64,000 nt of DNA from Bacilli bacterium (GCA_017445245.1 JAFSUM010000012.1:10067-74066); one strand, 5' to 3'; positions 11,689 through 56,346 are shown, counted from the stretch's first letter. Made by a program: numbers and translations. Notes: a model not told the origin generated them from the sequence alone.

Positions 11689-11766
11689 GGGGGTATTATC
11701 GCACGCGAGAGAAAAGCGGGCGAAAAAAGTTCCGCCAAGAGAAGAAAAACCGAGTACCCTTATTGC

Positions 11767-12540: not shown

Positions 12541-12572
12541 GAAACATCGCATCAAAATGAGCGACGCTTTTT

Positions 12573-17970: not shown

Positions 17971-18037
17971 GCGGGTAATAATAGAGAAAAATGACGAAAA
18001 GGGGAAATCATTTGCGTCAACGAACGTGTGAAATCGC

Positions 18038-18541: not shown

Positions 18542-18625
18542 GGTTTTCGTTTGGATTATAACCGACGGCTCTTTTCCTTCCAGCAAAAAACAATCCTTTC
18601 GAGAAAGTCCTGTTTTTTGAACATT

Positions 18626-19651
18626 CTAGAGTTTCTTGCAAACAATGCCGTCAACGGTGTAAAAGCCTTCGCCAAATGCGACTTTGGCAGCGCCATCTCT
18701 TCGGCCAAACACATTCTCGCCAATCGGATAGAACTTGAATTTGAAATTGCGGCTCACTTCATTGGAAGCTAGACCATAGAGGTCTCCGTCCTTCATCCAC
18801 ACTTCTTTTAACTTAAAATCCTTACAGTTCGTTTCGTATTTGCCGCAGTAAGATTCCCACTTGCTCTTATCAGGGTTCTTAACGGTCTTGAAGAAGATTG
18901 GGCTAATCCAATAACAATGGTATTTATGGTCGAACGTGTAGCCTAGCTTTTCCGAAAGGTGAACCGATTTCACGTTCGCGGCATCCCAGGTTGGTTTCCA
19001 TCCCCTGTCCAAACAATCGAGAATCAGCTTCGCGGAAGCGGCGCTGGCCAGTCCTTTTCGCCGATGCCTCTTATCGACGTCAACTTCAATATCGATCGCC
19101 TTAGGAAAGCGATACGCAGCAGAAGCGCCTCCCACTACTTTGCCATCCTTAACAACGGCATACCCTATTCCATGTTCTAAGAACTGTTTTTTGCTATCAA
19201 ACCAACCGATTAAGTCTTCGAGTTCTTCGTCCTCTACCTTCTTGCACAAATCATAGGTTTTAGAATCGATGAACTTAAGTTCATACCCTTCCGGCAGGGC
19301 GTCTACCATCGCCTGAAGTTTATCCCTATCGAAGTTCGCGTCATGCTTAAGGGCAAAGCGAGTATCTTTTCCCGCTTCGGGAAAGCATTGTTTGATGAGT
19401 CGTTCCCATTCTTTGTTTTGGGGGAAGAGACCAAACCATTCCTTTTGCTTTCTAATGATTAATGCCTTGTTTGGTTTCCCGGCGCAATAATACCAGCCCC
19501 CAAGGCAGCCGATCGCAGACTTTGGAGAAACGGGGTCATCGACATATATTCTGATTTTTTGGTTCAGACACAAAGGCCAATAAGGGAAAGGCCAATCGCC
19601 AAATAGTTTTTCGACTTTCCAGTATTCTTCTTTTTTCAATGAATGGACCAT
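18626..19651 (-). CDS. GNAT acetyltransferase (ZmaR-like two-domain type) with extra C-terminal domain
   Basis: ATG at 19651 (the track start at 19669 is GTG). GNAT core IEVDVDKRHRRKGLASAASAKLI and EKLGY. Confidence 0.7.
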   Translation of the reverse strand: MVHSLKKEEYWKVEKLFGDWPFPYWPLCLNQKIRIYVDDPVSPKSAIGCLGGWYYCAGKPNKALIIRKQKEWFGLFPQNKEWERLIKQCFPEAGKDTRFALKHDANFDRDKLQAMVDALPEGYELKFIDSKTYDLCKKVEDEELEDLIGWFDSKKQFLEHGIGYAVVKDGKVVGGASAAYRFPKAIDIEVDVDKRHRRKGLASAASAKLILDCLDRGWKPTWDAANVKSVHLSEKLGYTFDHKYHCYWISPIFFKTVKNPDKSKWESYCGKYETNCKDFKLKEVWMKDGDLYGLASNEVSRNFKFKFYPIGENVFGRRDGAAKVAFGEGFYTVDGIVCKKL

Positions 19652-19671
19652 AATCGAACTTCGAACCACCG

Positions 19672-20745
19672 TCAGTTCTTTCTAAGGCCGGATTCTTGAT
19701 AATGTCTGTTCTTTTCCCGGTACATCATCTCATCCGATTCTTTCAGCAAGTCGCTGATTAGTCGATTACCGTCGAGATTGAAACTATAGCCGATGGCACA
19801 GCTATACTCCGTCCCGGAAATATATTTTTGAATGTGCTCAACGATGCCTAGTACTTCTTCTTTTGGAGTTTTGCGGCAAACGACAATGAATTCGTCGCCC
19901 CCGATCCGATAACCGGATTGTTTGCTTTTCAAAGCGCGCATGATGCATAAAGAAATGGAAACCAGCGCTTCGTCTCCCGCAGCATGGCCGATCGTGTCAT
20001 TGATGGTTTTGAGTCCATTCATATCGATCGAGATGATCGCAGTAATGGCCTTTGGGTCATTGTTCACATCCGCATAGTAGGCATGGCGATTTAGTAAACC
20101 CGTCAAAGAATCCTTTTTAACGATTTGGAGCAACGTGAATTCGAAATAGGAGAATAAGGCGATGGCGATGATTAAACAGAAGATGCTAGCAAAGTCGCCC
20201 TGCAAAACGAAAGGTAAAACCAAACCAGAACCAAGCGCGAACGCCAGGAAAGCAATATAAACGATCTCCGTTGGCTTTTTGTTGCTGCGTTTGACCAAAA
20301 GGAAAATAAGGAGAGCGCTGTATAGACCTACCATGATGAAGGGCAGGTATCCCAATGGGCCGCGCACCAACTCGTTGTTCTCGTTAATTTTGAAAACGAT
20401 GCCCGTAAAAATGGAGATGAAGTTCACGATTACCAAAGCGAAAGCGGGAATGAAAATAAACCAGCGGAGCCGCTTTACCAAAGCGAATATCAAAAGGGCG
20501 ATGATTAACGGGGTCGCGCTATATCGAATTGCCATTAGGACGGTACGTAAGTCCCTGAGCTCTGGCTTCTTGGCAATATAGAACTCAGCGAAGACGACAA
20601 CGGAAAGCAAGAAGACCGCCGCCAAAAGAACATACATACGGATCTTTGTTTTCTTATCCAAAAACACCGTTGTAATAAGCGAAATGACAAACGCGAGCAG
20701 GACTAGAATCAGTGGCCAATTTTGAAGTAAGTATTCTTTAATCAT
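19672..20745 (-). CDS. Membrane-bound diguanylate cyclase (GGDEF domain)
   Basis: The ATG at 20745 gives MIKEYLL (the track start at 20799 is TTG). About 6 TM helices, then LTGLLNRH, DMNGLKTINDTIGH and RIGGDEF. Confidence 0.85.
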   Translation of the reverse strand: MIKEYLLQNWPLILVLLAFVISLITTVFLDKKTKIRMYVLLAAVFLLSVVVFAEFYIAKKPELRDLRTVLMAIRYSATPLIIALLIFALVKRLRWFIFIPAFALVIVNFISIFTGIVFKINENNELVRGPLGYLPFIMVGLYSALLIFLLVKRSNKKPTEIVYIAFLAFALGSGLVLPFVLQGDFASIFCLIIAIALFSYFEFTLLQIVKKDSLTGLLNRHAYYADVNNDPKAITAIISIDMNGLKTINDTIGHAAGDEALVSISLCIMRALKSKQSGYRIGGDEFIVVCRKTPKEEVLGIVEHIQKYISGTEYSCAIGYSFNLDGNRLISDLLKESDEMMYREKNRHYQESGLRKN

Positions 20746-20838
20746 CAAGTTACCTAACGTCCAAGATTTTACTACATTTGGCAAAAACGGTTCGCTCAAT
20801 TATCCCCGCCTTAAAAACATCGCATCCATTTTTTAGCA

Positions 20839-21680
20839 TTACGATAGATTTTTCTCCGCAAATCTTTGGGTAAATACCTCTTTATATCCTAATGATTCGT
20901 ATATGTGTCTAGCGTTTTCGTTGCCTTCGACGCACCATAAAACGGGTTCGTCTATGGCTTTATCAATAAGGCGGTTGGTAAGATACTTCACGAATTGTTT
21001 TCCCAAACCTTTTCCTTGATGGGAAATCTTAACGGAAACGGAACTTAGTTCTTCTTCGTCGAGATTGGCATACCCAACGATTTCCCCATCCATCTCGATA
21101 ACGTATTTCTCTTTTGCCCAACGCAGCCATCTTTCCCTCGTGTCTTTTCTTGGAGCGGCCACGACCGAATCGGGAAAACAACCAGTCCCCACTCTCATTC
21201 TATGAAAAGCTTCCGCACTCAAACGGAAGGCCTCGTCGAAATCCTCGTCCCGATACTGCCGAACAGGAAGGTCGGGTTCTTCGAATTTGTCGCCATCGTA
21301 TTTCATCAACGTTGACGCCCAGGTTAACTGATAACCGTTTTTGAGCACGAAACGCTTTGCGTTATCGTTGTTGAAGGCATAGATAGCGGTAATCTTTTTC
21401 ATGGACGAAGCCAGATAATTCCGCTCGATTTGCTTTAACGCTGCCGTACCATAGCCTTTGTTTCGGTATTCCTTGAAAACGTAAAAGACATATGCGGTTC
21501 GTCATCGTTCTCAATGTAAGCTATGCCAATGACGGTATCGCCAAGCATCAAAGCAAATATCTCTTCGCTTTCTTCTTCGATTTCCGCAACGAACTCTTCT
21601 CCGGTTTCTTCAAGATCGATAAGCGGAAGAAACTCGGTCAAGTTCTCTCCTTTATTTATTCTTATTTCGGCGGTATTCAT
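20839..21680 (-). pseudogene. Tandem GNAT-GNAT acetyltransferase interrupted by a frameshift near 21490-21500
   Basis: Track ORFs 21435..21680 and 20839..21402 lie in different frames. Reading the second frame upstream of its ATG gives AYVFYVFKEYRNKGYGTAALKQIE, which completes the first GNAT core begun by ..VIGIAYIENDDEP. Confidence 0.7.
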
Positions 21681-21758
21681 AACGGATGGCCCTCGTTTTC
21701 ATGATTCTAATACAAGAAAAAAGGACTGACACATCGTACCAATCCTATCTTCTTAAGT

Positions 21759-21835
21759 TGGTGACCCGTACGGGATTCGAACCCATGAATGTATCCTTGA
21801 AAGGGATATGAGTTAAGCCACTTCTCCAACGGGCC
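21759..21835 (-). tRNA. trnE: tRNA-Glu (anticodon UUC)
   Basis: Reverse complement is GGCCCGTTGGAG..TATCCCTTTCAAGGATA..GGTTCGAATCCCGTACGGGTCACCA. Anticodon loop is CTTTCAA. Confidence 0.85.
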
Positions 21836-21838
21836 ACA

Positions 21839-21913
21839 TGGCGCTCAGCATAGGATTCGAACCTACAACCGATCGGTTAACAGCCGATTGCTCTACCGTT
21901 GAGCTAGCTGAGC
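21839..21913 (-). tRNA. trnN: tRNA-Asn (anticodon GUU)
   Basis: Reverse complement is GCTCAGCTAGCTCAACGGTAGAGCAATCGGCTGTTAACCGAT..GGTTCGAATCCTATGCTGAGCGCCA. Confidence 0.9.
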
Positions 21914-22002
21914 GTCTGCCTTTTCAGGCACGGACAATAATAGACGCGCTCAAAGCGGTTTGCAATCACTTTTGAAACGTTTCGCGCCAAGGAAACGGGA
22001 GA

Positions 22003-26685: not shown

Positions 26686-27041
26686 CGTTCCAGACATGTC
26701 GGTACCTCCGAAACGATTGTCTGAAGCCTTTTTTCGTATTGACGCCGGGTATAGACGTCAAGATACCAGAAAGGATAATGCCGCCCCACTTCCAGTATTT
26801 CCATCACGAAGAAGCGCTGGTCCTCTTCCTTTAGATTCAAAAAGTAATGCCGCAAGTTCGTCAAAAAGCGCTTTGCCTTGCTATCTTTTAGGTTGTCCAA
26901 AAACTCGGGAGAGATATCAAAAATATGGTAATCGGGGGACTTGCCGACGCTAAGCAAGGCCTGGCGATACTTGACTCGGATCTTCTTCATCCGCTCCGCG
27001 TTTGGTAATTTCACTGGGGTTGTGGTTTCGTGCTGACTCAT
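26682..27041 (-). CDS. Hypothetical small cytoplasmic protein, first gene of filament operon (possible regulator)
   Basis: 119 aa. GGAG lies upstream of the ATG. A basic or aromatic C-terminal segment (FWYLDVYTRRQYEKRL) may be DNA-binding, but this is speculative. Confidence 0.4.
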   Translation of the reverse strand: MSQHETTTPVKLPNAERMKKIRVKYRQALLSVGKSPDYHIFDISPEFLDNLKDSKAKRFLTNLRHYFLNLKEEDQRFFVMEILEVGRHYPFWYLDVYTRRQYEKRLQTIVSEVPTCLER

Positions 27042-27152
27042 AAATGCTCCTTCACCCCTTCTATAGTTCGTTTTTCGACAACTCGAAGAAAAAAGATGAC
27101 GAATTTGGTTTTACGGTGGATAAATAATCCGAAATAAGTAAGAATTATCGGG

Positions 27153-27686
27153 ATGATTATCCTTGTTGGCGCTTCTGCCTCCGGAAAGACCGAAATCGCG
27201 AAAAAACTCTTTTCCAACCACGGGATGAAGAAAGCCGTTACCCATACGACGCGCCTCATCCGCCCTAGCGAGACCCCCGATGTCGATTATCACTTTGTCG
27301 ATGAGGCCCAGTTTCTCGTCATGAAAGAAAAAGATCTCTTCGTAGAGACCACGCTTTATAACGGAAACCACTACGGCTGTTCCAAGGCCGAGGTGGGTGA
27401 TGAAAAGTGCATCATTCTCGATCCTAACGGGGTCGCGGCCTTTCTCGCTCTAAACGACCCTCATATCATTACGTTCTATTTGCGCGCAAGCGAAGAAACT
27501 AGGCGAAAGAGAATGAACATACGCGGGGATGAACCGGAGGCTATCGAAAAGCGTATTCGTAACGACCGCAGCGCCTTCGCAGACGACAAAATCCCTCACG
27601 TCGACTTCGTCATCGATTGCGATACGCGCAGCATCGAAGACCTCGCCGAAGAGATCTACAAATCCTATCGGGCCAAAATCGCCTAA
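27153..27686 (+). CDS. gmk: Guanylate kinase
   Basis: 177 aa. P-loop GASASGKT, then TTR..R..E..G.DYHFV. Confidence 0.85.
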   Translation: MIILVGASASGKTEIAKKLFSNHGMKKAVTHTTRLIRPSETPDVDYHFVDEAQFLVMKEKDLFVETTLYNGNHYGCSKAEVGDEKCIILDPNGVAAFLALNDPHIITFYLRASEETRRKRMNIRGDEPEAIEKRIRNDRSAFADDKIPHVDFVIDCDTRSIEDLAEEIYKSYRAKIA

Positions 27687-27698
27687 CCGAGGCAAAGC

Positions 27699-27728
27699 AA
27701 AAGGCGACCCGTGAAGGTCGCCTTTTTC
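27699..27728. terminator. Bidirectional terminator between convergent gmk and the 737-aa gene
   Basis: AAAAGGCGACC-CGTGAA-GGTCGCCTTTTT is a perfect hairpin with A and T runs on both sides. Confidence 0.65.
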
Positions 27729-27737
27729 GATTGTGGA

Positions 27738-29951
27738 TTAATCCTCGTCGGAATCCGAGCCAGCAGGCTTGTAATCCTTGAGTTCGGCCGCCCAATCGTG
27801 CGGTTCGATCTTGCCCTGTTCGAGGCCGTTCTTTTCCATGACGTCGGCGATGAGCTGTTTCGCGCGGCGGAGGGAGAGGTCGGACTTGACCTTGAAGACG
27901 AGCGGGATGTCGCGATAGACGCCCTTGTGACCAGCATCCTGAACCGGGAGGGTACTATTTTCATAGTCCTTCGGATCGAGGGCATAGTAGAGCTTGAGGC
28001 CCTTGCCGGCGATGGTGATCTTAACGAAGGTCACCTTGTGGAGGCGGAAGATATCGCCCGAATTGGAGACGCGGGATTTGGCTCCATAGGAGAGAATCTC
28101 AGCCTTCAGTTCGTTGTAGTTGTCCTTCAATTCCTTTTCGGCGTCCATCATGCGGACGGGGAAGGGAATGCGGATGATCTTGTCATGGGGCGGGAGATCG
28201 GGATTGATCTCACCGACGGCACGAACGACAACTTCGGGCTCGGGGGCGGGAGCGGGCTCAGGAACGGGTTCCGGTTCGGGTTCGGGTTCCGGCTCGGGCT
28301 CGGGGACGGGTTCGGGTGCGGGAGCGGGTTTGGGTTCAGCCGGCTTCACGATGATATTGACGGTCGGGAGAACGGATTCTTCCTTGGGTTCCGGTTTGGG
28401 TTCGGGGCGGACGATATCGGACTCCTTCACGACAACGGTGACAGGGGGAACCTTTTCTTCCTTGACGGGAGCGACTTCACGGAGTTCTTCGCGGATGATG
28501 TCGCGAAGGGCATCGATGGAGAGGTCATCCTTCTTGGGTTCGGGTTCCTCTTTCTTGGCGAGTTCGGCGGCGATGATGGCACGGATGTCTTCGGCGGTCA
28601 GGGGCTTGGGTTGTTCTTCAACTTCCTTCTTGGCAGCTTCAGCAGCTTCCTTACGGGCTTTCTCGAGTTCTTCCTGACGGGCCTTTTCCGCGGCTTCTTC
28701 CGCTTCTTTGGCCTTGGCGGCTTCTTCGAGTTTGGCGGCGTGGGCAGCGAGTTCTTCGCGGACGACGTCACGAACGTCGGCAGGCTTTTCTTCTTCCTTG
28801 GCCGGAACGTTCTTCGAGAGTTCGGCGGCGATGATGGCGCGGATATCATCGGCGGAGAGAGCCGGGGCGGCATCTTCTTCGACGAGGATTTCGCTTTCGT
28901 CGGCGGCACCGTCGTCGGGGTTATCCTCGGTCAGGTAACGGCCGAGTTCTTCCGAGAAGATGGAACGAACGTCTTCGGCGGTTAGACCCTTTTCTTCTTT
29001 CGGGGTCGCGGGAACGTTGACGATGACGGGCTGATCTTTGCCAGCACCGAATTCTTCTTTGATGATCTTGCGGATGTCGTCGGCGCTTAGCGGCTTCTCG
29101 CCAGTGACGGCAGCCTGGATTTCAGAAACGGGGACGGCATTAGGTTTGCGTTCCGGTTCACGAGCGGGTTCAGTGACCGCGGGCTGAGCCGGGGCATAGG
29201 TGTTGATGTATTGGATGAGCAAGGGTCCTTGGATGCCAGGAGCTTGGGGCATCGGGGGGAGCGGAGCGGCGTTATGACGCTCGTTGAAGCCACCTTCCTT
29301 GAGAGCGGCTTCCGCTTCTTCGGCGGCTTCGCTGGAGTCGAGGTCTTCGTCATGGACGACGACGATTTCGTCATCGGCAGCGGCTTTCTGCTTGGGCGAT
29401 TCTTTCTCGGCAGCGAGATGGAAATCAACAAGGAGACCGATGAAGAGAAGAAGGAAGCCAATAACGATGAGGGCCGGCCCAACGATGAAGAGAAGGGCGA
29501 TCCACTGATTGGCGGAAAGGGCGAGGGCAATCGGGTTGTAGAAACCGAAGTAGTAACCAACGACAGGCCCGTAAACACCGCCGATGACCCCTTCGGTGAG
29601 GCCAGGGACGAAGAAGATGGTCATTCCGAAGTACAACGCGGCGATGCCGATGAGGCCGAAGATCGTCACGAAGATACCGGCGTGATGGCGCTTGACGGAA
29701 TAATAGATGATGTGGGCGATGTAGACGAGCAGCATGACTCCGCACACACCAAGCGTGATGTACTCCATCAAATCCCAGGGCTGACGGAATTGGGCGGCCA
29801 AGACCGTACCGAGGTTGTTGAAGATTTGGGCGCTGGTATAGAGGTGCTGTCCCTGAACGGGGACGAAATCACCAAGCCATATCAGGCCCGCTAAGCCGAC
29901 AAGCATCAAAACGAGGCCGACGACCGAAGTGATAATCACTTTCTTTTTCAT
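27738..29951 (-). CDS. Large membrane protein: about 5 TM helices, six-fold amphipathic repeat, (PE)n linker, C-terminal globular domain
   Basis: The ATG at 29951 is preceded by GGAGG and gives MKKKVIITSVV (the track ORF starts at 30011). The repeat is L(S/T)A(D/E)DIRxII..EL. I recognise no family. Confidence 0.7.
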   Translation of the reverse strand: MKKKVIITSVVGLVLMLVGLAGLIWLGDFVPVQGQHLYTSAQIFNNLGTVLAAQFRQPWDLMEYITLGVCGVMLLVYIAHIIYYSVKRHHAGIFVTIFGLIGIAALYFGMTIFFVPGLTEGVIGGVYGPVVGYYFGFYNPIALALSANQWIALLFIVGPALIVIGFLLLFIGLLVDFHLAAEKESPKQKAAADDEIVVVHDEDLDSSEAAEEAEAALKEGGFNERHNAAPLPPMPQAPGIQGPLLIQYINTYAPAQPAVTEPAREPERKPNAVPVSEIQAAVTGEKPLSADDIRKIIKEEFGAGKDQPVIVNVPATPKEEKGLTAEDVRSIFSEELGRYLTEDNPDDGAADESEILVEEDAAPALSADDIRAIIAAELSKNVPAKEEEKPADVRDVVREELAAHAAKLEEAAKAKEAEEAAEKARQEELEKARKEAAEAAKKEVEEQPKPLTAEDIRAIIAAELAKKEEPEPKKDDLSIDALRDIIREELREVAPVKEEKVPPVTVVVKESDIVRPEPKPEPKEESVLPTVNIIVKPAEPKPAPAPEPVPEPEPEPEPEPEPVPEPAPAPEPEVVVRAVGEINPDLPPHDKIIRIPFPVRMMDAEKELKDNYNELKAEILSYGAKSRVSNSGDIFRLHKVTFVKITIAGKGLKLYYALDPKDYENSTLPVQDAGHKGVYRDIPLVFKVKSDLSLRRAKQLIADVMEKNGLEQGKIEPHDWAAELKDYKPAGSDSDED
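28232..28337. repeat. Imperfect hexanucleotide-type repeat (GGTTCG/GGCTCG)n encoding the PEPEPE/PAPAPE tract
   Basis: The run cgggctcgggggcgggagcgggctcaggaacgggttccggttcgggttcgggttccggctcgggctcgg... lies in frame within CDS 27738..29951. Confidence 0.8.
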
Positions 29952-30035
29952 TTTGCTTTCCTCCGCAAAAACTAGTTGCCTTATATTACCGCCCTCGTGA
30001 CACGTACGCAATACGGAAAAAACGAGGGCGAAGGC

Positions 30036-47765: not shown

Positions 47766-48233
47766 ATGAGTAGGTGCTTGCTGGCGGGCAAGGGTAAAAT
47801 AGGCACCGTGATCAAACCGGTATTCAGCCATGGGCCAAGCAAAGACGCCATCGCGATTCGCGAAGAGGTTTTTTGTCACGAGCAGGGCTATCAAAACGAA
47901 TTCGACGACCTCGACAAAGAATCGATTTCGCTCGTCCTCTATCTCGATGAATATCCCATCGCGACCGGGCGGCTGGTCAAACTCGATCCTGCCCGTTATC
48001 AGGCTGGACGATTGGCGGTCCGGAAGGAATACCGTGGTAGGCAGGTTGGTTCCTATCTTCTTCGTTTCCTTTGCAAAAAGGCAAAAGAACTGGGGGCCAC
48101 AACCGTCATCGTCCATTCGCAGCTAGAGAAACGCGGTTTCTACCTGAAACTCGGTTTTCGGATTCTCGGCGATGGCGAAATCGATTTCGACGAGGGACAT
48201 CCTCACGTCTACATGATTCGCGACGCCTATTGA
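47766..48233 (+). CDS. GNAT family N-acetyltransferase
   Basis: 155 aa. IREEVFCHEQG and LAVRKEYRGRQVGSYLL. The exact start is uncertain. Confidence 0.7.
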   Translation: MSRCLLAGKGKIGTVIKPVFSHGPSKDAIAIREEVFCHEQGYQNEFDDLDKESISLVLYLDEYPIATGRLVKLDPARYQAGRLAVRKEYRGRQVGSYLLRFLCKKAKELGATTVIVHSQLEKRGFYLKLGFRILGDGEIDFDEGHPHVYMIRDAY

Positions 48234-48279: not shown

Positions 48280-48894
48280 ATGGAACAAACGGCAGTAGAT
48301 AAACGTAACGTAAAATTGTACGTCTGCTTCGGCGGATGCCTGGCTTTGACGGTACTTTCGATCGTCTTGTTTTTGGCTAGGGGTCTCGACTCCAACCGTT
48401 TCTTCGACGGGGTCACTTGGACGATTGCCTGCCTCCCCATTTCGATGGCCGTCCCCCTCTATGTTTTCTTCGACTTCATTGACCATTCCTCGGACCCGAA
48501 GAAAGCCCAAAACTACTTCCCCATCGCCGAAGACGAGCATGAAAAGGCTTGCCGTTACGGGTTCCTCTATTCCGCCGTTGCCGTCATCTTCACTCTCATC
48601 TGCTTCTTTGCCTTTAATGGCAGCAAGAACATCACCGAAGCGAAGACCTGCATGATTTTCCTTGTGCCTTCGGCCCCGGCTTTGGCCATCTATTTGATTC
48701 CCACCATCATCGCCTTAAACAAAAAAGACCAGGATGGCCTTTCGTTTTTGATGTCGTTCTGCCTATTGGCAGTCATTGCCGCGACGGGTTTGATTATCTA
48801 TGGGATGCTTCAGGAACAAATGACCTATCTCGTCGCCTATATCGTCTTCCCGATCGTCGTCTTTATCCTCTTGTTTTATAACCGCGAGGACTAA
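48280..48894 (+). CDS. Hypothetical polytopic membrane protein
   Basis: 204 aa with about 6 TM helices. TATAAT (48266-48271) lies 8 nt upstream of the ATG and there is no SD. Confidence 0.5.
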   Translation: MEQTAVDKRNVKLYVCFGGCLALTVLSIVLFLARGLDSNRFFDGVTWTIACLPISMAVPLYVFFDFIDHSSDPKKAQNYFPIAEDEHEKACRYGFLYSAVAVIFTLICFFAFNGSKNITEAKTCMIFLVPSAPALAIYLIPTIIALNKKDQDGLSFLMSFCLLAVIAATGLIIYGMLQEQMTYLVAYIVFPIVVFILLFYNRED

Positions 48895-49424
48895 TTCTTT
48901 TTCACCGCCACGGCGATGCTCGTCCAAATCCACCAGATGAAGAGGACGGCAGGAATCGCCATCGTCAAAAGCAGATTCAAATTCATAAACGCCAGGGCGC
49001 TATAGTCGTCGAAGATACGCTTTTGGCTCGCGTAATAGTCGATGGTGAAACGCTCGACATAATTGGCCAACAAAAAGGCCCCGGCGATATAGCCAACGCC
49101 CAAGAGGACGAAGAGAACCATAATGGTCGGAACCATGACCCTGCGGTAACGCAATACGGGGAAAAACGCGGCAAAAACCGCATAAATTCCAATCAAACCC
49201 ACGCTGATTAAAGCGAGAAAGAAGAAGATTTTCACGAAATCGCTCGAATAGAGATAAGCCTTAAACAAACCGACTTGTCCGGCGCTGATCGGTTTACCGC
49301 CTTCCACGGCGACGAGATCATATTCGCCATCCCGAAAGCCTGGAATGAACATGGCGATGACCGTCCATAAGGGAATCAGTAAGAAGAGCAACGGACGCCA
49401 CTCGAATTTCGTTTTCTTATCCAT
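48891..49424 (-). CDS. Hypothetical membrane protein (last gene of helicase/NUDIX operon)
   Basis: The ATG at 49424 gives MDKKTKFEWRPLLFLLIPLW. About 4 to 5 TM helices. 8-nt overlap with the NUDIX gene. Confidence 0.5.
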   Translation of the reverse strand: MDKKTKFEWRPLLFLLIPLWTVIAMFIPGFRDGEYDLVAVEGGKPISAGQVGLFKAYLYSSDFVKIFFFLALISVGLIGIYAVFAAFFPVLRYRRVMVPTIMVLFVLLGVGYIAGAFLLANYVERFTIDYYASQKRIFDDYSALAFMNLNLLLTMAIPAVLFIWWIWTSIAVAVKKN

Positions 49425-50010
49425 GATGTTTCTCCAATAGACGCTCGACGAGAAGGCGGACATTTAGGGCGACCATATGTCCGCATGTCCCAAAATAGTC
49501 CTTCACCTTAGACAATTTGACCAAACGGTAACTGATATCTTCGTAATCCTCAAGATGGCGGATGCTCTGGGCGTCGATTCTGCCTTCCACTACCGCGACG
49601 AGTTCGTCGCTAAGACCGCTGCTAGTAGGCGAAGGAGGACATAATAAACGCACATCCTTAAGAACAAAGCCGGTCTCCTCAAGCGTCTCTCGCACCGCGG
49701 TATCAAGCGGGGAAGCATCGCCCTCCGTTAGTCCAGCCGGAAACTCAACCACATAATCGTTTAAAGCAGGACGGAAGACCTCGATGAGTAATAAAGAGGG
49801 GTCTTCTTCCTCCGTAAGGGCGCAGACGATTACCCCATCCGCGAGACCTTTTTTGGTCAGGGCTTGTAGGTCATCCTTCTCTCTTCTAGAAGCAAGGAAA
49901 TAAGGATAATCGGTAACTTTGCCCTCTTTTTCGACCTCGTAATGAAAAACGAAGAAATTCAAAAAGCGGTGATCTGTTTCCTTTTCGATTCGTCTTAACG
50001 TCCAGTCCAT
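49417..50010 (-). CDS. NUDIX hydrolase (ADP-ribose pyrophosphatase-like)
   Basis: 197 aa. EFPAGLTEGDASPLDTAVRETLEETGF is a Nudix box of the NudF type. Confidence 0.75.
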   Translation of the reverse strand: MDWTLRRIEKETDHRFLNFFVFHYEVEKEGKVTDYPYFLASRREKDDLQALTKKGLADGVIVCALTEEEDPSLLLIEVFRPALNDYVVEFPAGLTEGDASPLDTAVRETLEETGFVLKDVRLLCPPSPTSSGLSDELVAVVEGRIDAQSIRHLEDYEDISYRLVKLSKVKDYFGTCGHMVALNVRLLVERLLEKHHG

Positions 50011-50630
50011 TAGTTTACCTTTTTCGCGAGGTCTGCTTTGCGGCTTTCCAGTGCGTCCGAAATGGAAGAAAGCTGCTTGCCTAAGGCTTCTTTGAATTCT
50101 TCGGGCGAGCCGTGGCTTGCTGCCAAGGATTCCCTTTGGGAATGGTAGGCCGTCTTCGTCTTTTCGTCCTCAAGGTTATAGCCGCGGTTTACGCCAGCTA
50201 CGACAAAACCAGAGAAGGTGAAAAGCGGGCCGAGGAACATCTCGGGTGGAAACTCGTCTTGTTTGGCGGCCAAGTTGAAAGCGGCGAGCATGATGGCCAA
50301 ATCGTAGATAGGAATTAGTTCAGGATGCTCAAGACTCTCCTTATCCCACTCAGGCCAAAGGACTTCCTTTGGCGTATAGGGAAGCAGGCGACGGACGCTG
50401 GCGACATCAAGAAAACTCGCCCAGGCCACGCGGAAAAATTCGCCACCGAGTTTGCGGTCGAGCAAAAACGTCGAAACGAAAATGCCTGGAACGGAAAGGT
50501 GATGCGGACGATCGAAAATATCTTTGTCCCAGTCGGAAAAAGCGCGCGTGAGCAGCCCCATCGCCGAGGCGAGGGTTTCCACCGCGGAGGGATCAATGTC
50601 GACAGTCTTCTTTTCGTCCATGGCGTCCAT
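50010..50630 (-). CDS. Hypothetical protein (helicase/NUDIX operon)
   Basis: 206-aa ORF with 1-nt overlaps at both ends. I recognise no family. Confidence 0.5.
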   Translation of the reverse strand: MDAMDEKKTVDIDPSAVETLASAMGLLTRAFSDWDKDIFDRPHHLSVPGIFVSTFLLDRKLGGEFFRVAWASFLDVASVRRLLPYTPKEVLWPEWDKESLEHPELIPIYDLAIMLAAFNLAAKQDEFPPEMFLGPLFTFSGFVVAGVNRGYNLEDEKTKTAYHSQRESLAASHGSPEEFKEALGKQLSSISDALESRKADLAKKVN

Positions 50631-51592
50631 TATATGCTTCTGCTCTTCTTTTTCGTTTTCTTTTTACGCTTCTTGGTTTTCTTCGGTGCATCGAAAAACG
50701 GCCCTTCGACGCTTTGAAGAAGGTCGCCATGGTAAAGGAGAGTAAACCTAAAAGGCTTCCCATTTGTTTCTAGATAAGGTAAGAAAGCCCGGTCGCCCTC
50801 CCACATGGGCAAATCGAGCATCTCTTCTTTTTTGACCCAGCGCAATTCGCCTTCGTCGCACTCTTTAAGATTTCCTTCAAAGGACTCTACGCGGTAAAGA
50901 TACATCCGCTCGGCCGGGCAAGCGTCGTTAAGGAAGTCACAGTATCCAAGGTAGCGGTGTTTTCTAACGTTCAGGCCCGTTTCCTCATAGACCTCGCGTT
51001 TCATGCAGGCTAGAGGTGATTCGCCGTTTTCGATATGACCCCCTACCCCAATCCATTTTCCTTCGTTTGGGTCATGCTGTTTTTTGGTGCGATGGAGGAG
51101 CAAATAGGAAGACCTGTCTTCGGATTCGACATAAACCAAAGTGGTACGACCTTCGATGAGAGAGCGCCTACGTTCCACTTCCTTCCGCTTTTCAATCGTC
51201 TCGAGAATCGACTTTTTTACGCCTTCGATATCCTTTTCGATTTGTTTGCCCCAAAAGCGCAACACCGTATAGCCCTGCTCTTGAAGTGTCTTGTTGACGA
51301 GTTCGTCCCTTGCGATGTTGCGGCGAATCTTCCCGATCCAAAAATCGCCATATTCGGCAAGGGAGGAAACGTTTTTCTCAAAGTGGTAGCCATGCCAGAA
51401 TTCGGAGTCGCAAAATATCGCGATTTTATAGGCGGGTAAACATAGATCAGGGTGCCCGAAAACATGGGGGCTATAAAGACGGTAACGAATCCCCTCCTCG
51501 GTGAGGGCCTTCCTCAGTTTTCTTTCGATGCCCGTATTCTTTCCGCGAATCGCGGACATGGTCTTGTGAATGAGTTCGGGCGAACGTTTCAT
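50630..51592 (-). CDS. Fusion protein: Vsr (very short patch repair) endonuclease domain plus MutT/8-oxo-dGTPase-like NUDIX domain, Lys-rich tail
   Basis: 320 aa. The N-terminus (MSAIRGKNTGIERKLR...GHPDL...IFCDSEFWHG...FW..KI..N..RD) matches E. coli Vsr motifs. The C-terminal Nudix box is GGHIENGESPLACMKREVYEETGL. The tail is KKTKKRKKKTKKKSRSI. Confidence 0.8.
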   Translation of the reverse strand: MKRSPELIHKTMSAIRGKNTGIERKLRKALTEEGIRYRLYSPHVFGHPDLCLPAYKIAIFCDSEFWHGYHFEKNVSSLAEYGDFWIGKIRRNIARDELVNKTLQEQGYTVLRFWGKQIEKDIEGVKKSILETIEKRKEVERRRSLIEGRTTLVYVESEDRSSYLLLHRTKKQHDPNEGKWIGVGGHIENGESPLACMKREVYEETGLNVRKHRYLGYCDFLNDACPAERMYLYRVESFEGNLKECDEGELRWVKKEEMLDLPMWEGDRAFLPYLETNGKPFRFTLLYHGDLLQSVEGPFFDAPKKTKKRKKKTKKKSRSI

Positions 51593-51990
51593 TTCTTGCC
51601 GCGACGGAGTTTGTCGTTACTCTCCTTGCTCCGCTTTTCGGCCGCAAGCAAAGCTTTTTCCGCTTTTTCGACCGCCTCGGTCGTCTCTTCTAGCGAAGTC
51701 TGAAGACCTTGGATATCGAGTTTTTCTAGACGATGCGAGGTCGCGTCGAGCGTGCCTTGGAGCTCGTCAAAACGGTGGATGGCATTATTGAGATCGGTGA
51801 TTAACGTCTCAAGAGCCCCAATCCGATTTTCAAGTTCCCGCACCAAGGTGAAAAGGTCGTCGATTTGGGAACCGAGGTTCTCGGCTTTCGCTCCAAGTTT
51901 TTCCTCGGCGTCGGCGATGATGCCAAGCTTCTCTTCCAACCCGCCTAGGGTCGAAAGGGTCTTTTCGAGATTTTCTACTGTCTTATCCAT
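51589..51990 (-). CDS. Coiled-coil protein (helicase/NUDIX operon)
   Basis: 133 aa with heptad-like Leu/Glu-rich sequence throughout. ATGA overlap downstream and 8-nt overlap upstream. Confidence 0.55.
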   Translation of the reverse strand: MDKTVENLEKTLSTLGGLEEKLGIIADAEEKLGAKAENLGSQIDDLFTLVRELENRIGALETLITDLNNAIHRFDELQGTLDATSHRLEKLDIQGLQTSLEETTEAVEKAEKALLAAEKRSKESNDKLRRGKK

Positions 51991-54900
51991 CTGCGAGCCT
52001 CCTTTTCAGTCGATCGATATCGTCGTCGATGGTGTGATTATATAACCCAATACACAAGTCGAGGAACATGACCCGCTCCTTATTGGAAAGCGCTTTTGGA
52101 AGGTGGCGATACGCCTCTAATGCGTCTTTAGCTTCGATACCATGGTTTAACAAAGCAAAGAGCAAGCGCTCGCAAAGGCCTTTGCCCCCGTCTTGATAAA
52201 GGCGAAGCATCGAAGCGTAATCCCCGTTTTCAAGATAGAGGGCAACCTGCTCTTTCTCCCCCATCTCGCCACGGCTCGCCTTCAAATAGGCGACAGCCTT
52301 TTCGCGAGCTTCTGCCGCCTCGGGGCGACTTGAACGGGAATAATAGAACGCCGCGCGGTCATAACGTCCCAAACGGAATTGTTCGTCGCCACGCTTCTTC
52401 CAGTCGCCGATACGCATCTTCCCTTCGAAATAGCGATGGAGTTCGGACATATCCGCAAGAGAAACAAGGCCAGACAAAAGATTGCGACGAATAAGTTCGG
52501 AAGGATCCGATTCATAGACGATGATGCGATTCTCGGCGCGTGTCAAAGCGACGTAGAAGCGATTGAAAAGCATACGGTGGATGGTCGAACGATGTCCGAG
52601 TCTTTCCTCTCCTAGCATCCCGTCGAAAAGCTTCCGCGAATTGGAAAAGAAGTCGACGAGGACGACCGAATCCCATTGCATGCCCTTCGCATCTTCAACG
52701 GAAAGGAAGCGGGTTTCAACGAGGTTTTTGGCCTTTTTGCCGAATTCTTCGTGGCATTTTTCTAATAGAGTTGCGCTTGGAAAGATGAAGACGACATCGC
52801 GGTCGGTCTCCGCACAAGCCTCAACAAGTTCTTTTAACCGTTCTTTTCCTTGAACGAGAATCGGTAACAAATCCGCATCGTCTTCGCGAACGGAAATCTC
52901 TTCGTCATCGCCATATCGTCTCGTCCCAATGGCCTCCCGCTTCACGCGGTTAATGTCGTTGATGTAATGGACGAGGGCGGGGCCCGAACGATAGGAACTC
53001 CCAATGAGTTGTCTTTCAAACACTACCCCTTGGCCAAAGACCATTCGAAGCATGCGGTTCGCGTCATCGAAATCGAATAACGTCGGGTTGATGGCTTGGT
53101 TCTCGTCGCCATAGATGAATAGTGGCAGCGGATCGGCGGGTTTGATTTGGTTTAGGATCGCGATGAACTGTAGTTCGGTAAGGTCTTGGAATTCGTCGAC
53201 GATAATCGCGTCATAGGGCGCGCCTTTGGAACCGAGGGCCATGATTTGGGACGCAAGTTGGTTATCGGTGAAGCCATCCTCGCGTTCCAGTACCGCCTGG
53301 TAGGCTTTGCCGACCTCGTAGATGGTTTCTTTTTCCGCGTTAGAATAACCGCGTTCATCCCGCGTAAGTTCAAAGAAGCGTTCTTTGCTCATCAGGGCGC
53401 GAACGTTCGTCTTTCCAGGTTCGTAAACGCCGTCGATGACCCCACGATAGAACGTATAGCAAACCCGGAATTGGTCTTCCAAAGCGTCGCCAAAAGCCCG
53501 AAGCGGCCGTTTCATCGCATAGGTATGCTTTGCATAATGAAGGAACCAATCGCGGAAATGACGTTTGGTCTTCATCTTGTCTTTTGCCTCGGGACCTAGA
53601 ATCGAGCCGACCAGTCCGCGGAAGGTCATCGTCTCGACGTTGTCCGCATCCAAGAGTTCAAACTGGTGGGTGACCATATCGCATAGACGTTGTTGGTAAG
53701 TGAGGTAAAGGACGCGCTTCCCTTGCTTTCCCATCTCTAAGCCATGTCGGACCGAGAGCAGTGTTTTTCCTGTTCCGGCAGAGCCAAGGAAGGCCATCGG
53801 CATGCGCACCGCCGCTTCTCCCAATAAGCCAAACTGGTCAGAAGACATATGAGGCACATGTTCCAGCCCACCGTCTTCGCCTTCGGGGAGAAACTGTTGG
53901 TAAACGAAATCGCGATGTTCGAGGAAACGACCGTAACGGTTTTCTGCGAACTCGTATTGGTCATCGTGTTCTTCGTGAGGCGAAATACCAAGGAGTAGCA
54001 AACCATCCCCACTGACCGTGCCGGGCAAATCGTAGCCATAGCAATAAAACAAACGCGCCCCGGCATATTGAGGACTCGTCCCAAAACGGAATTTATAAAC
54101 GGTTACGGGGCCGCGATCAAAGATCTTCTTGCCATCGTTTCGTTTTAGGTAATCCACCAGTTCTTCTTCCGTGGTGGAAAGAAGGACGGCCAACGTATGC
54201 CTTAGGTCTTCGTCAAATAAACCGAAATAAGAATCGTGGAACGCTTCGCAGTCGCGCTGGAAGGAAGAGGTTGAGAAAACCTTCCTTCGCTGGATGAGTT
54301 TTTCGCGATGTTCCTCTACCGGAGGTTCTTCCTTTTCGATAACGGGGATAACCTTGGGTTCTGCTTTCGGTTTGATAACGGTCGGCGTTTCTTTTTTCGG
54401 TTCGATAGGCTTTGGCTTAACCGGAGGGATCTGGTAACGCTTAACCAGGTCAAACGTCGTCAAAGGCGAACCAGCAAGAGAGGCACCCGAGGTGAGGAAG
54501 GCAAAGACAGAACGGCTCTTTTTAGAAAACCGAATGACGAGACAGAAACGCGGATCGTCTTTCAAAGCGATCAATACGGATTGGATTTCGTCCTCGGGGC
54601 CAAGGGTTAAGACGAGGGGGTTCCACTTCTTAATATCGAATGTCCGAATTTCGGGAAGAGCATCGACATCATAATCGGGAAAGTCCGGGGTGAAGACGCA
54701 GAACTCACCGATATAAAGCGAGGTAAGGTTTTCCAGGGACTTTGCCACCTCTTGAAAACGCTCGACCACCTCGATCTTATATGGGGTATAGAAGAGGTTA
54801 AAGCAACCCTCAGGCTGCATCAACGTAAAGGCGCTCTTCGCGGACCAATGACGCAGATCTTTGGGCCTGCCTTTAGCAACGGGAGGCCGGTACGCCTCGA

Positions 54901-55729
54901 GTTTTGGAATGTTAACGACTTCGGGTTCTTCTTCCTTTTTAGGTTCGATTTCCTTGGGTTTTTCTTTGGAAATCGCATCGAGATTGCGAGGTTTTTTGGA
55001 AGAAGTCGGCACAAAAGAAGGTGGAATGACGGGTTCGGAATCCTTTGCTTGTTTCTTAGGCGTTTCGGAAAGAGAAGGCGCAGAGACAGGTTTCTTGATG
55101 CGGTAGTCACCAAGGTTTTTCGGCTTCTTGCTGCCGCCGGCTACGAAAGAAGGGCGCTCGACTTCAATCGCCCCGTCGGGTTCTTCGATGTCTTTTTGAG
55201 AATGTGTATCAAGATTCTTCGGCTTCTTTTTCTGATAGGCCGCGAAGGAGGGATGGACATAGCTCGTTTGCTTGCCCGCGTCTTTATGGGCCAAAATGTC
55301 ATCGATGCCTGAATCCCAAGGATAATCCTGACTGGCATAAAGCAGAGTAGGCCCCGACCATACCTCCCAGTCTTGGTAAATCGCGGCGATGATGCGGCCT
55401 CGGTCCAAGGCCAAGACGAATGCCCGTTCTGGGTCGCGCTTATTGCAGATAAACGCGGTCTGATGGGTTCCATATTGGTCGATTTCCGCGGCGATGAGAG
55501 TCCATTCATCCATGTCGAAATGGAGTCGTTCTTCCCTTTCGAAATCGGTCTCATGATGAGTGATGGGGAAAATGCTATTCTGCGAATTATAGGAAAAATC
55601 CAAACGCGAATAGGATTCGAGAATCTCGAGGATGAAATCGTAGTCCGCATTCCCGGCTTGGCTATTCTCGGGGTCGAAGAAAAGGAGGGATAAACCCTTG
55701 TTTACGCGGTCATAATAAACATAGGCCAT
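51983..55729 (-). CDS. Large SF1 (UvrD/Rep-like) helicase with duplicated N-terminal domain, repeat linker, RelE/ParE-like insert and TPR-like C-terminus
   Basis: 1248 aa with an AGGGGGA SD. Walker A GSAGTGKT (aa 649-656), motif II IIVDEFQDL (aa 842-850), YGDENQAI, and motif VI YVALTRAENRIIV. Confidence 0.8.
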   Translation of the reverse strand: MAYVYYDRVNKGLSLLFFDPENSQAGNADYDFILEILESYSRLDFSYNSQNSIFPITHHETDFEREERLHFDMDEWTLIAAEIDQYGTHQTAFICNKRDPERAFVLALDRGRIIAAIYQDWEVWSGPTLLYASQDYPWDSGIDDILAHKDAGKQTSYVHPSFAAYQKKKPKNLDTHSQKDIEEPDGAIEVERPSFVAGGSKKPKNLGDYRIKKPVSAPSLSETPKKQAKDSEPVIPPSFVPTSSKKPRNLDAISKEKPKEIEPKKEEEPEVVNIPKLEAYRPPVAKGRPKDLRHWSAKSAFTLMQPEGCFNLFYTPYKIEVVERFQEVAKSLENLTSLYIGEFCVFTPDFPDYDVDALPEIRTFDIKKWNPLVLTLGPEDEIQSVLIALKDDPRFCLVIRFSKKSRSVFAFLTSGASLAGSPLTTFDLVKRYQIPPVKPKPIEPKKETPTVIKPKAEPKVIPVIEKEEPPVEEHREKLIQRRKVFSTSSFQRDCEAFHDSYFGLFDEDLRHTLAVLLSTTEEELVDYLKRNDGKKIFDRGPVTVYKFRFGTSPQYAGARLFYCYGYDLPGTVSGDGLLLLGISPHEEHDDQYEFAENRYGRFLEHRDFVYQQFLPEGEDGGLEHVPHMSSDQFGLLGEAAVRMPMAFLGSAGTGKTLLSVRHGLEMGKQGKRVLYLTYQQRLCDMVTHQFELLDADNVETMTFRGLVGSILGPEAKDKMKTKRHFRDWFLHYAKHTYAMKRPLRAFGDALEDQFRVCYTFYRGVIDGVYEPGKTNVRALMSKERFFELTRDERGYSNAEKETIYEVGKAYQAVLEREDGFTDNQLASQIMALGSKGAPYDAIIVDEFQDLTELQFIAILNQIKPADPLPLFIYGDENQAINPTLFDFDDANRMLRMVFGQGVVFERQLIGSSYRSGPALVHYINDINRVKREAIGTRRYGDDEEISVREDDADLLPILVQGKERLKELVEACAETDRDVVFIFPSATLLEKCHEEFGKKAKNLVETRFLSVEDAKGMQWDSVVLVDFFSNSRKLFDGMLGEERLGHRSTIHRMLFNRFYVALTRAENRIIVYESDPSELIRRNLLSGLVSLADMSELHRYFEGKMRIGDWKKRGDEQFRLGRYDRAAFYYSRSSRPEAAEAREKAVAYLKASRGEMGEKEQVALYLENGDYASMLRLYQDGGKGLCERLLFALLNHGIEAKDALEAYRHLPKALSNKERVMFLDLCIGLYNHTIDDDIDRLKRRLADG

Positions 55730-55800
55730 ACGTTATCCCCCTTTATTGGTTTACTATTGTAAACGATAAAAAACTCCCTCGATAGACCCCCGAACAAGAA

Positions 55801-56346
55801 ATGAATCCCCGCCCTCACACCATCGTCAAAGCCAAAAAGGAAGACCTGTCGGACCTGTTCCGTTTTTTCGCTTTGTTAGAAGGTGAAACTACGCCAAGCG
55901 AGGAAGAACTCCTAACTGAAATCGACCGCGGCGGTTTCTATCTCCTAAAAAGCGGAACGAAAATCCAAGGGGTTGCCTCCATCTCCCACGACGTTATCGA
56001 AGCCTTCTACCCCGATAGCCATAGCTACCGCAAATCCGATGATTTATTAGAACGAATCGGCTATCGAGGAGAACCCCTATGTGTTTTGACGCGTTTTGCC
56101 ATATCTCCTCTATGCCGCCGCAAAGGCTTTGGAAGCGAATTTCTTCAAAGTCTATTAGCCCGTTACAAAGGGTCTACGTGGTTAACTGAAATAAGGCAAA
56201 ACGCGTTACATGCCCTACCGTTTTTCCAAAAGAATAACTTTTCCATCCTTGGAATCTATCCACCCATCGAAGGGCGGGAAAACGAATCGATCATCGTCTA
56301 CAAAACCTATAAGAAAGACGGACTTTGTTCCGCCTCTTGGTGGTAG
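55801..56346 (+). CDS. GNAT family N-acetyltransferase
   Basis: 181 aa. FAISPLCRRKGFGSEFL, and a C-terminal F..NNF. Confidence 0.65.
   Translation: MNPRPHTIVKAKKEDLSDLFRFFALLEGETTPSEEELLTEIDRGGFYLLKSGTKIQGVASISHDVIEAFYPDSHSYRKSDDLLERIGYRGEPLCVLTRFAISPLCRRKGFGSEFLQSLLARYKGSTWLTEIRQNALHALPFFQKNNFSILGIYPPIEGRENESIIVYKTYKKDGLCSASWW

Follow-up and report, generated by a model that had tools for sequence, protein, structure and literature searches.

A 64,000-nucleotide stretch of DNA from a Bacilli bacterium (GCA_017445245.1, JAFSUM010000012.1:10067-74066; hereafter the window, meaning the whole stretch analysed) carries a cluster of six minus-strand genes at 48891-55729, one of which encodes a Vsr-type endonuclease domain fused to an MTH1/MutT-like Nudix domain. 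We found that this cluster is most likely a vertically inherited chromosomal block, and not a patchy island or a mobile anti-phage system. Our preferred explanation, which we hold tentatively and give a probability of roughly 0.45, is that it forms a lineage-specific, vertically inherited mutation-avoidance operon of uncultured gut and rumen Bacilli. This reading is based on domain identities, residue conservation, gene order and phyletic pattern, from which substrates, interactions and the order of events were inferred. A preliminary description of this DNA had pointed to anti-phage helicase-nuclease systems and offered a dedicated mutation-avoidance or repair module as the alternative. The alternative proved the better fit, and a mutation-avoidance function is favored because the recognizable enzymes all belong to families of DNA or nucleotide hygiene. 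As kinds of protein, Vsr, Nudix and UvrD-like enzymes are known; what is new is their combination, together with a partner protein that is an orphan and a helicase of unusual architecture.

All six products have conserved homologues, and the six open reading frames (ORFs) are therefore real genes, as had been supposed. Their proposed content, namely a UvrD-like helicase, a Vsr domain, two Nudix domains, a coiled coil, a 206-aa protein without a family and a membrane protein, also holds by profile search. For gene 6 the longest ORF starts at 49463; we used the start at 49424 (177 aa), following public gene calls and the relatives. The six genes are as follows.

51983..55729, minus strand: gene 1, 1248 aa, multidomain UvrD-like superfamily 1 (SF1) helicase
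51589..51990, minus strand: gene 2, 133 aa, coiled-coil protein
50630..51592, minus strand: gene 3, 320 aa, Vsr::Nudix fusion with a Lys-rich tail
50010..50630, minus strand: gene 4, 206 aa, clade-restricted all-helical protein
49417..50010, minus strand: gene 5, 197 aa, Nudix hydrolase of the ADP-sugar pyrophosphatase/NUDT5 type
48891..49424, minus strand: gene 6, 177 aa membrane protein with about four transmembrane segments by eye

The fusion protein encoded by gene 3 consists of two domains.

51185..51592, minus strand: Vsr domain, aa 1-136, aligned to E. coli Vsr 1cw0 (E 9e-15)
50768..51148, minus strand: Nudix domain, aa 149-275, MTH1/MutT-like by profile comparison with the PDB

Gene 3 scored 111.5 bits against TIGR00632 (cutoff 97.85), which places it in the Vsr family, with 73.2 bits against PF03852 (cutoff 27) and 75.9 bits against PF00293. 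Residues D49, F65, W66, H67, W85, N92 and D96 are invariant among 30 fusions. E. coli Vsr (1cw0) has catalytic residues Asp51/His69/Asp97 and intercalating residues Phe67/Trp68/Trp86, and D49, H67, D96 and F65, W66, W85 of gene 3 align with these positions, such that aa 1-136 keep the catalytic Asp/His/Asp and the Phe-Trp...Trp intercalating residues. The protein differs from the E. coli enzyme in its added Nudix domain and Lys-rich tail and in sharing an operon with a helicase.

The nearest structural relatives of the Nudix domain are MutT/MTH1 (NUDT1) and Firmicute MutT/MutX, with matches to NUDT1/MTH1 (E 5e-19), B. halodurans MutT 3fk9 (E 1e-17) and NudG 2rrk (E 3e-8), and its WxGD motif aligns with what is presumably the MTH1 base-recognition loop, a comparison that is our own reading. 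The superfamily box GX5EX7REUXEEXGU is complete (G185..E191..R199 E200..E203 E204..G206) and invariant or nearly so among the 30 fusions. The domain differs from MutT/MTH1 in being joined to a nuclease and in missing all NCBIfam equivalog cutoffs widely (34-46 bits vs 148-245). It falls below those for MutT (NF008044, 34.3 bits vs 148; TIGR00586, 24.1 vs 97.9) and for NudG (NF007834, 35.8 bits vs 156), and its relation to these enzymes is one of similarity only. If these assignments are true, the fusion would link mispair repair and nucleotide-pool sanitizing in one polypeptide.

The same architecture could be read differently. MutY consists of a catalytic domain and a MutT-fold C-terminal lesion reader, and the reader has lost the Nudix catalytic residues. 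Gene 3 likewise pairs a catalytic domain with a MutT-fold domain, and its Nudix domain might read a DNA lesion and retarget the Vsr nickase to oxidized-base mispairs. The nearness of the domain to MTH1/MutT enzymes that handle 8-oxoguanine is consistent with this, as is the Lys-rich C-terminal tail, which is general across the gene 3 family and may bind nucleic acid. We consider a lesion reader very improbable, however, because the REx2EE signature that MutY's reader has lost is invariant in gene 3, which argues for retained hydrolase activity, and because stand-alone homologues 45-57% identical to gene 3 aa 150-295 are ordinary small Nudix enzymes widespread in Clostridia.

Gene 3 homologues formed 694 clusters at 90% identity, and the best 120 of these 694 were all Vsr and Nudix fusions with 51-96% identity to gene 3, so that the fusion, with at least 120 clusters and up to 694, is common among the uncultured Bacilli of gut and rumen. 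Databases name these proteins simply 'Vsr'. A full-text literature search turned up no description of a Vsr-Nudix fusion and gave nothing specific for a Nudix-helicase defense system.

Relatives of the cluster were collected by homologue look-ups and a scan of one genome per GTDB species, and the loci were labeled L001 onward. Their record and sample names point to rumen and gut metagenomes, and the named relatives are metagenome-assembled genomes labeled Bacilli or Erysipelotrichaceae. The slot occurs in five forms. The first, with helicase, coiled coil and Vsr-Nudix, with or without genes 4, 5 and 6, is found in the window, L001-L006, L016, L021 and partly L020. In the second a protein of roughly 500 aa, with homology to the N-terminal third of gene 1 and to no other part of it, is followed by Vsr-Nudix and usually gene 4 (L008, L014, L017-L019), and in the third Vsr-Nudix and genes 4, 5 and 6 occur without gene 1 (L010, L011, L013). 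In the fourth form (L012) Vsr-Nudix is followed by a gene-4-like ORF that has diverged very far, and a His_Phos gene has been inserted between this ORF and gene 5. The fifth belongs to sister lineages (L023, L025, L034, L038, L039, L045, L055, L058, L063), where a stand-alone Vsr 51-57% identical to gene 3 aa 1-136 follows two ATP-binding cassette (ABC) genes in a Sel1-ABC-ABC-(GNAT) arrangement. The stand-alone vsr genes have ordinary neighbors, including transporters, YhhN and, in L034, a Ham1-family NTPase (a Ham1/RdgB-family non-canonical NTP pyrophosphatase at 12521-13138, minus strand, about 2 kb from vsr, and thus one more house-cleaning enzyme close to the slot).

We used a neighbor-joining tree of the concatenated ABC1 and ABC2 proteins as a species proxy. 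The fusion clade was monophyletic, with the lineages that have Vsr alone outside it, and L012, which lacks gene 1, was the first branch inside. Three branches had the full-length helicase and coiled coil, namely L021, L016 and the window clade together with L005 and L006. L010/L013, without gene 1, were nested beside L005, and L008 and L017-19, which retain just the N-terminal module, were sister to L016. Gene 3 was present in every fusion-clade member examined and never lost. The simplest reading is that genes 1 and 2 were gained once and then underwent one complete loss (L010/L013) and one truncation (L008, L017-19). Gene 2 is restricted to loci with the full-length helicase (the window clade, L016 and L021), and the two genes were always gained or lost jointly across the relatives.

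The neighborhood itself is stable. Upstream lie a Sel1-like gene, two ABC exporters and an opposite-strand GNAT gene, and downstream an opposite-strand 204-aa membrane protein gene, a second GNAT gene and a P-type ATPase gene; these flanks are conserved in all relatives, with gene 3 identity running from 100% down to about 47%. The contigs of close helicase homologues (60-71% identity) show all six genes in unchanged order. One suggested check was whether the six-gene neighborhood is both conserved and patchily distributed in related genomes; we found the conservation and not the patchiness, since the flanks are conserved in every locus. Comparison of the window proteins with those of L005, L006 and L010 gave the following identities.

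ABC exporters: 64-67% identity to the window
P-type ATPase: 68-76%
Gene 3: 62-65%
Gene 4: 57-68%
Gene 5: 51-55%
Helicase core: 54%
Helicase N-terminal domains: 20-26%
Coiled-coil protein (gene 2): 27-38%
Gene 6: 28%

Gene 3 thus diverges at the pace of its housekeeping flanks. GC content is flat across the cluster and equal to that of the flanks, and IMG/VR viral contigs held neither the Vsr-Nudix fusion nor the helicase, only separate Vsr or Nudix genes. With conserved flanks, a clade-universal gene 3 and no fusion and helicase in IMG/VR, the locus does not behave as mobile defense, with the caveat that helicase presence varies and that defense-type genes are inserted in two relatives.

We compared the cluster with known defense systems. 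PADLOC gave partial, generic matches (GajB/UvrD, a plain Vsr and the generic Nudix candidate PDC-S07) and weak partial matches to the GajB, Nhi and AbiO helicase models, and PHROG matches were limited to generic families (helicase, endonuclease, Nudix), which bears out the statement that the cluster is no described repair or defense system. It resembles Gabija in combining a UvrD-like helicase with a DNA nuclease, and the best GajB match had an E of 6.8e-10 over about 90 residues. In contrast to Gabija, the nuclease is a Vsr, and the locus is syntenic and clade-universal rather than patchy; none of the six proteins matched a GajA model (OLD-family ATPase with TOPRIM nuclease), and the cluster is therefore not Gabija. 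None matched HamA (DUF1837) or the superfamily 2 helicase HamB either, and it is not Hachiman because HamA is lacking and the helicase belongs to SF1. Nudix domains are exchangeable defense effectors, and 2TM-Nudix effectors (two transmembrane segments and a Nudix domain) are known from CBASS and UG23 reverse-transcriptase systems (PMC9226505). The Nudix gene 5 is translationally coupled to the small membrane protein gene 6 in a similar manner; genes 5 and 6 nevertheless encode separate proteins, no cyclase, SMODS or reverse transcriptase accompanies them, and relatives can do without gene 6.

A chromosomally fixed anti-phage or conflict system would have the helicase sense or translocate on foreign DNA, Vsr nick it, and the Nudix enzymes break down nucleotides modified by phage or signals of the ADP-ribose type. 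Defense systems commonly pair a helicase with a nuclease, and the weak GajB, Nhi and AbiO matches and the use of Nudix domains as defense effectors fit such a system. The rapid evolution of the gene 1 N-terminus and genes 2 and 6, the repeated loss of the helicase, a modeled RelE-like domain that the helicase may contain, the patatin and Schlafen-AlbA_2 insertions at the locus in relatives, and the lack of a Dcm in the window and 19 related loci point the same way. We judge this explanation unlikely nonetheless, for no known system or GajA or HamA partner was matched, the position is syntenic over a deep clade in which the Vsr-Nudix gene is universal, composition shows no anomaly, and the fusion and helicase are not found in IMG/VR viral contigs. 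Moreover, the ancestral slot holds a plain vsr amid ordinary genes, and the nuclease belongs genuinely to the Vsr subfamily and keeps its mismatch-intercalating residues. The anti-phage lead of the preliminary description thus found no support in this synteny, the flank-like GC, the universality of gene 3, IMG/VR or the sister slot. The locus is a cautionary case, in which overlapping helicase, nuclease and Nudix genes look like defense and the phyletic and synteny evidence points to housekeeping.

We also considered that the cluster could be an operon of convenience, in which functionally unrelated genes of a compact genome share no more than a promoter and no six-protein system exists. Several observations agree with this. 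In L016 some 6 kb separate gene 5 from the rest, in L012 a His_Phos gene stands between the gene-4-like ORF and gene 5, L006 lacks gene 6, and L010/L013 lack both helicase and coiled coil; nearby genes such as the ABC pair overlap too, several of the six genes have their own Shine-Dalgarno (SD) sequence, and nothing clearly connects ADPRase-type Nudix proteins or membrane proteins with Vsr. Yet gene 3 stays adjacent to gene 4, and gene 1 or its N-terminal module to gene 3, at identities down to 17-30%, the helicase and coiled coil are gained and lost jointly, the helicase/coiled-coil/gene 3 overlaps are conserved, and the recognizable enzymes share a theme of DNA and nucleotide hygiene. We regard an operon of convenience as possible but on balance unlikely. 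The claim that the six genes form a single unit stands insofar as the cluster is operon-like and conserved; it is not indivisible, since helicase and coiled coil are lost jointly and genes 5 and 6 are separable.

For the mutation-avoidance operon, we propose that its core would be the Vsr domain fused to an MTH1/MutT-like Nudix with apparently intact catalytic residues, together with gene 4. Gene 5 (a NUDT5/ADPRase-like Nudix, often present) and gene 6 are optional members, and the helicase and coiled-coil protein are probably an accessory pair lost by several lineages. The operon may have grown around an ancestral vsr that first stood alone and was then fused to Nudix, with genes 4 and 5 recruited; the large helicase with its coiled-coil partner would be a later gain, afterwards lost or truncated in several lineages. 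The Vsr domain would nick beside T:G (deamination-type) mispairs, and the fused Nudix, perhaps with gene 5, would clear modified or oxidized (deoxy)nucleoside tri- and diphosphates, (d)NTPs and (d)NDPs, leaving a clean pool for the repair patch and for replication. The helicase, tethered by its tandem-domain and repeat-motif N-terminus, would load at the nick and displace the damaged strand. Because the N-terminal module of gene 1 persists beside gene 3 without the helicase, we suggest that this module is the part contacting gene 3 or gene 4. Gene 4 could be an adaptor or regulator of the fusion protein, and gene 6 may be a passenger.

The helicase step would have a parallel in methyl-directed mismatch repair, where UvrD acts after MutH nicking. 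Gene 1 resembles UvrD/PcrA/Rep in its intact SF1 motifs and in sharing an operon with a mismatch-nicking-type endonuclease, and differs from them in its divergent core, about 630 extra N-terminal residues, a TPR-like tail and a coiled-coil partner. The occurrence of gene 1 as a full helicase, as the N-terminal module only, or not at all amounts to a natural experiment on how a nickase recruits a helicase.

Several points weigh against a mutation-avoidance operon. The zinc ligands of E. coli Vsr (Cys66, His71, Cys73, Cys117) correspond to E64, Y69, F71 and K116 in gene 3, so that all four positions are substituted. A C5-cytosine methyltransferase is the usual partner of Vsr and is generally adjacent; gene 3, unlike E. 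coli vsr, has no adjoining dcm-type methyltransferase, and no ORF with the PCQxFS and ENV motifs of C5-methyltransferases was found in the 64-kb window or 19 related loci. Very-short-patch repair in E. coli uses Pol I and ligase and is not known to involve a helicase. Gene 5 looks like an ADP-sugar enzyme with no obvious role on DNA. Evolution is fast in the N-terminus of the helicase, in the coiled-coil protein and in gene 6 (17-38% identity vs 54-67% for the flanks), and such fast evolution together with the presence and absence of the gene 1 N-terminus and genes 2 and 6 is also seen in conflict genes. Two of the insertions at the locus, patatin and Schlafen AlbA_2, are of domain types common in defense islands. 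The species-proxy tree carries no support values, and because co-conservation of the six genes is inseparable from the synteny of the whole neighborhood, functional linkage among them is not proven.

Gene 1 had been called a giant SF1 helicase. The SF1 core is there; 'giant' overstates it, as the core takes up about 450 of the 1248 residues. The protein is a mosaic of the following parts.

55325..55729, minus strand: domain A, aa 1-135, alpha/beta domain of unknown kind, homologous to domain B
54845..55282, minus strand: linker, aa 150-295, predicted disordered, 3-4 motif copies, predicted local distance difference test (pLDDT) score 24-32
54434..54844, minus strand: domain B, aa 296-432, duplicate of domain A, pLDDT up to 79
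53900..54298, minus strand: middle domain, aa 478-610, tentatively a RelE/ParE-like fold
52475..53812, minus strand: SF1 helicase core, aa 640-1085, by Pfam, PHROG and conserved motifs
51983..52432, minus strand: helical TPR-like tail, aa 1100-1248, weak TPR matches

The core scored 31.5 bits against PF00580 (cutoff 23) and 35 bits against PF13245, and the UvrD-helicase and AAA_19 matches were confined to aa 640-880 and about 1008-1075. It also matched the DNA helicase family phrog_1967 (E 1.4e-16). Walker A GSAGTGKT, DEFQD, YGDENQAINP, KGMQWD and YVALTRAENR are kept in 7 orthologues, and with PF00580 above its cutoff and motifs I, Ia, II, III, V and VI conserved, gene 1 belongs to the UvrD/Rep SF1 helicases. 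By sequence the core had no PDB match at E<=1. A word-index search gave at least 4 helicase homologue clusters; a scan of the genome contigs with helicase patterns gave nothing. The tail had weak TPR matches (E 0.02-0.05), including one to the RPAP3 TPR domain (E 0.007).

The N-terminal 630 residues matched no family, with nothing credible in Pfam at E<=1; Tad3 was tried as an identity for this region and rejected (Pfam E 0.18). Domains A and B are mutually homologous (hhalign probability 98.9%, E 1.8e-17) and hence an internal duplication, and neither had a Pfam family or a fold match. Alignment and a regular-expression scan identified 3-4 copies of the motif P-[SA]-F-x4-5-[SG]-K-K-P-[KR]-N-L-[GD] in a K/P/E-rich linker between them. 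Every gene 1 homologue, with or without the helicase, has kept the repeats in both copy and sequence, among them those of L008 (8479-10062) and L017-L019 (about 8470-9995).

An AlphaFold2 (AF2) model of gene 1 aa 1-640, made from a four-sequence alignment, had a pLDDT of 46.7, with 57-75 within the middle domain. With this low-confidence model, Foldseek matched the middle domain to Cami1 (E 0.018, probability 0.99), to archaeal RelE 1wmi (probability 0.98, target template-modeling (TM) score 0.60) and to more than 10 YoeB, YafQ and HP0894 structures (target TM score 0.5-0.68). The domain had no Pfam match among 5-6 orthologues. Its sequence also resembles RelE/ParE, a tentative affinity with weak structural support and no profile match. 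A toxin-fold domain joined to an SF1 helicase would be unusual if the RelE-like fold is true.

In a further explanation the cluster would be an undescribed nick-directed excision pathway or a chromosomally fixed defense against modified-base DNA. The Vsr-Nudix protein would be coupled through the gene 1 N-terminus and gene 4 to a UvrD-like helicase with a RelE-fold domain, and the pathway could, in this lineage of small-genome gut Bacilli, replace canonical mismatch repair or add to it. We hold this explanation to be quite improbable.

Gene 2 gave only coiled-coil profile matches, all of them below threshold. Gene 4 had no match in Pfam, NCBIfam, PADLOC or PHROG. Its AF2 model is all-helical, with eight helices and a pLDDT of 91.7, and this fold had no match in the PDB or BFVD (best E 0.46), making gene 4 a confidently modeled orphan with no structural relative in either database. 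An exhaustive profile search of 1.84 billion proteins found 25 representative clusters, all single-domain, and neither fusions nor distant families. Gene 4 is thus a clade-restricted orphan. Among the related loci, every fusion locus but L008 and L012 had a match to the gene 4 profile behind gene 3, a weak one in L021 (E 2e-5); no stand-alone Vsr had such a match beside it.

Gene 5 scored 38.9 bits against PF00293, and its best PDB matches were NUDT5 and ADPRases (E 8e-9). It is nearest to the ADP-sugar pyrophosphatases (NUDT5, NudF/YffH, TIGR00052) and keeps REx2EE, with R107, E108, E111, E112 and the box G invariant. It differs from them in that the first Glu of the Nudix box is missing, replaced or shifted, and not conserved, and in that it falls far below the cutoffs for ADP-ribose pyrophosphatase (TIGR00052, 20.4 bits vs 79.55) and NudE (NF008736, 26.6 vs 169). 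Gene 6 had no family in Pfam, NCBIfam, PADLOC or PHROG searches and showed 28-60% identity in relatives; besides its absence from L006, tblastn found no match in L012 or L016.

The gene junctions were examined next to those of the surrounding DNA. The overlaps of 8, 4, 1, 1 and 8 nt between the six genes are exactly as first described. All five same-strand junctions in the cluster overlap, compared with one of the eight other junctions in the 24 kb of contig with called genes, and the cluster is therefore packed more tightly than the local norm. In relatives the helicase/coiled-coil/gene 3 overlaps and the gene 5/gene 6 overlap are kept, and the gene 3/gene 4 and gene 4/gene 5 junctions are short gaps of 0-21 nt instead of overlaps. 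Both 8-nt overlaps (51983-51990 and 49417-49424) are the same octamer, ATGGATAA, and genes 2 and 6 alike start with MDK.

The proposal that a strong SD stands only before the first gene was wrong. Gene 1 has AAAGGGGGA, gene 2 has the perfect SD AAAGGAGG seven bases 5′ of its ATG, and genes 5 and 6 have usable ones (AAGGT and GGAGA, respectively); genes 3 and 4 alone among the six lack an SD in the sequence 5′ of their starts. The region upstream of gene 1 is a short divergent interval.

55730..55800, minus strand: divergent intergenic region, 71 nt, with the gene 1 SD and a TACAAT-like -10 box, read from the sequence

This region is the presumed operon promoter. A consensus promoter scan called none in 55730..55800; the promoter and terminator scan was uninformative overall, with fewer promoter-like sites than in shuffled sequences. 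A sigma-70-like site, TTGAGA-17-AATAAT, lies within gene 2 at 51784-51812 (minus strand), some 190 nt ahead of gene 3, and could transcribe genes 3-6 separately. The site is weak because the scan as a whole fell below the shuffle expectation.

Downstream of the cluster, the gene for the 204-aa multi-pass membrane protein (48280-48894, plus strand) is convergent with gene 6 and overlaps its stop by 4 nt. The protein is syntenic in all relatives, fast-evolving (22-38% identity) and without a family; a kinship with gene 6 was considered and rejected, as no relation was detectable. The two GNAT genes, at 55801-56346 and 47766-48233 (both plus strand), bracket the cluster on the opposite strand and hold their positions clade-wide, including in lineages with a stand-alone Vsr.

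In several relatives an opposite-strand gene has been inserted just after gene 3. These are a Schlafen AlbA_2-domain protein in L016 (10939-12327, minus strand), a patatin in L008 (10997-12208, minus strand) and an unannotated 456-aa ORF in L014 (3919-5289, minus strand). The His_Phos gene of L012 encodes a His_Phos_1 phosphatase and is likewise on the opposite strand, inserted after the gene-4-like ORF (11616-12185, minus strand).

Across the whole window the most depleted palindromic tetramers were GATC (observed/expected 0.62, z -7.8) and CCGG (observed/expected 0.63, z -5.9). This depletion may be a footprint of restriction-modification or, at CCGG, of 5-methylcytosine, which would be relevant to an orphan Vsr. 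GC content departed from the window mean of about 0.50-0.52 at 27000-30000 (0.55-0.57, with positive GC skew) and at 18000-22000 (0.44).

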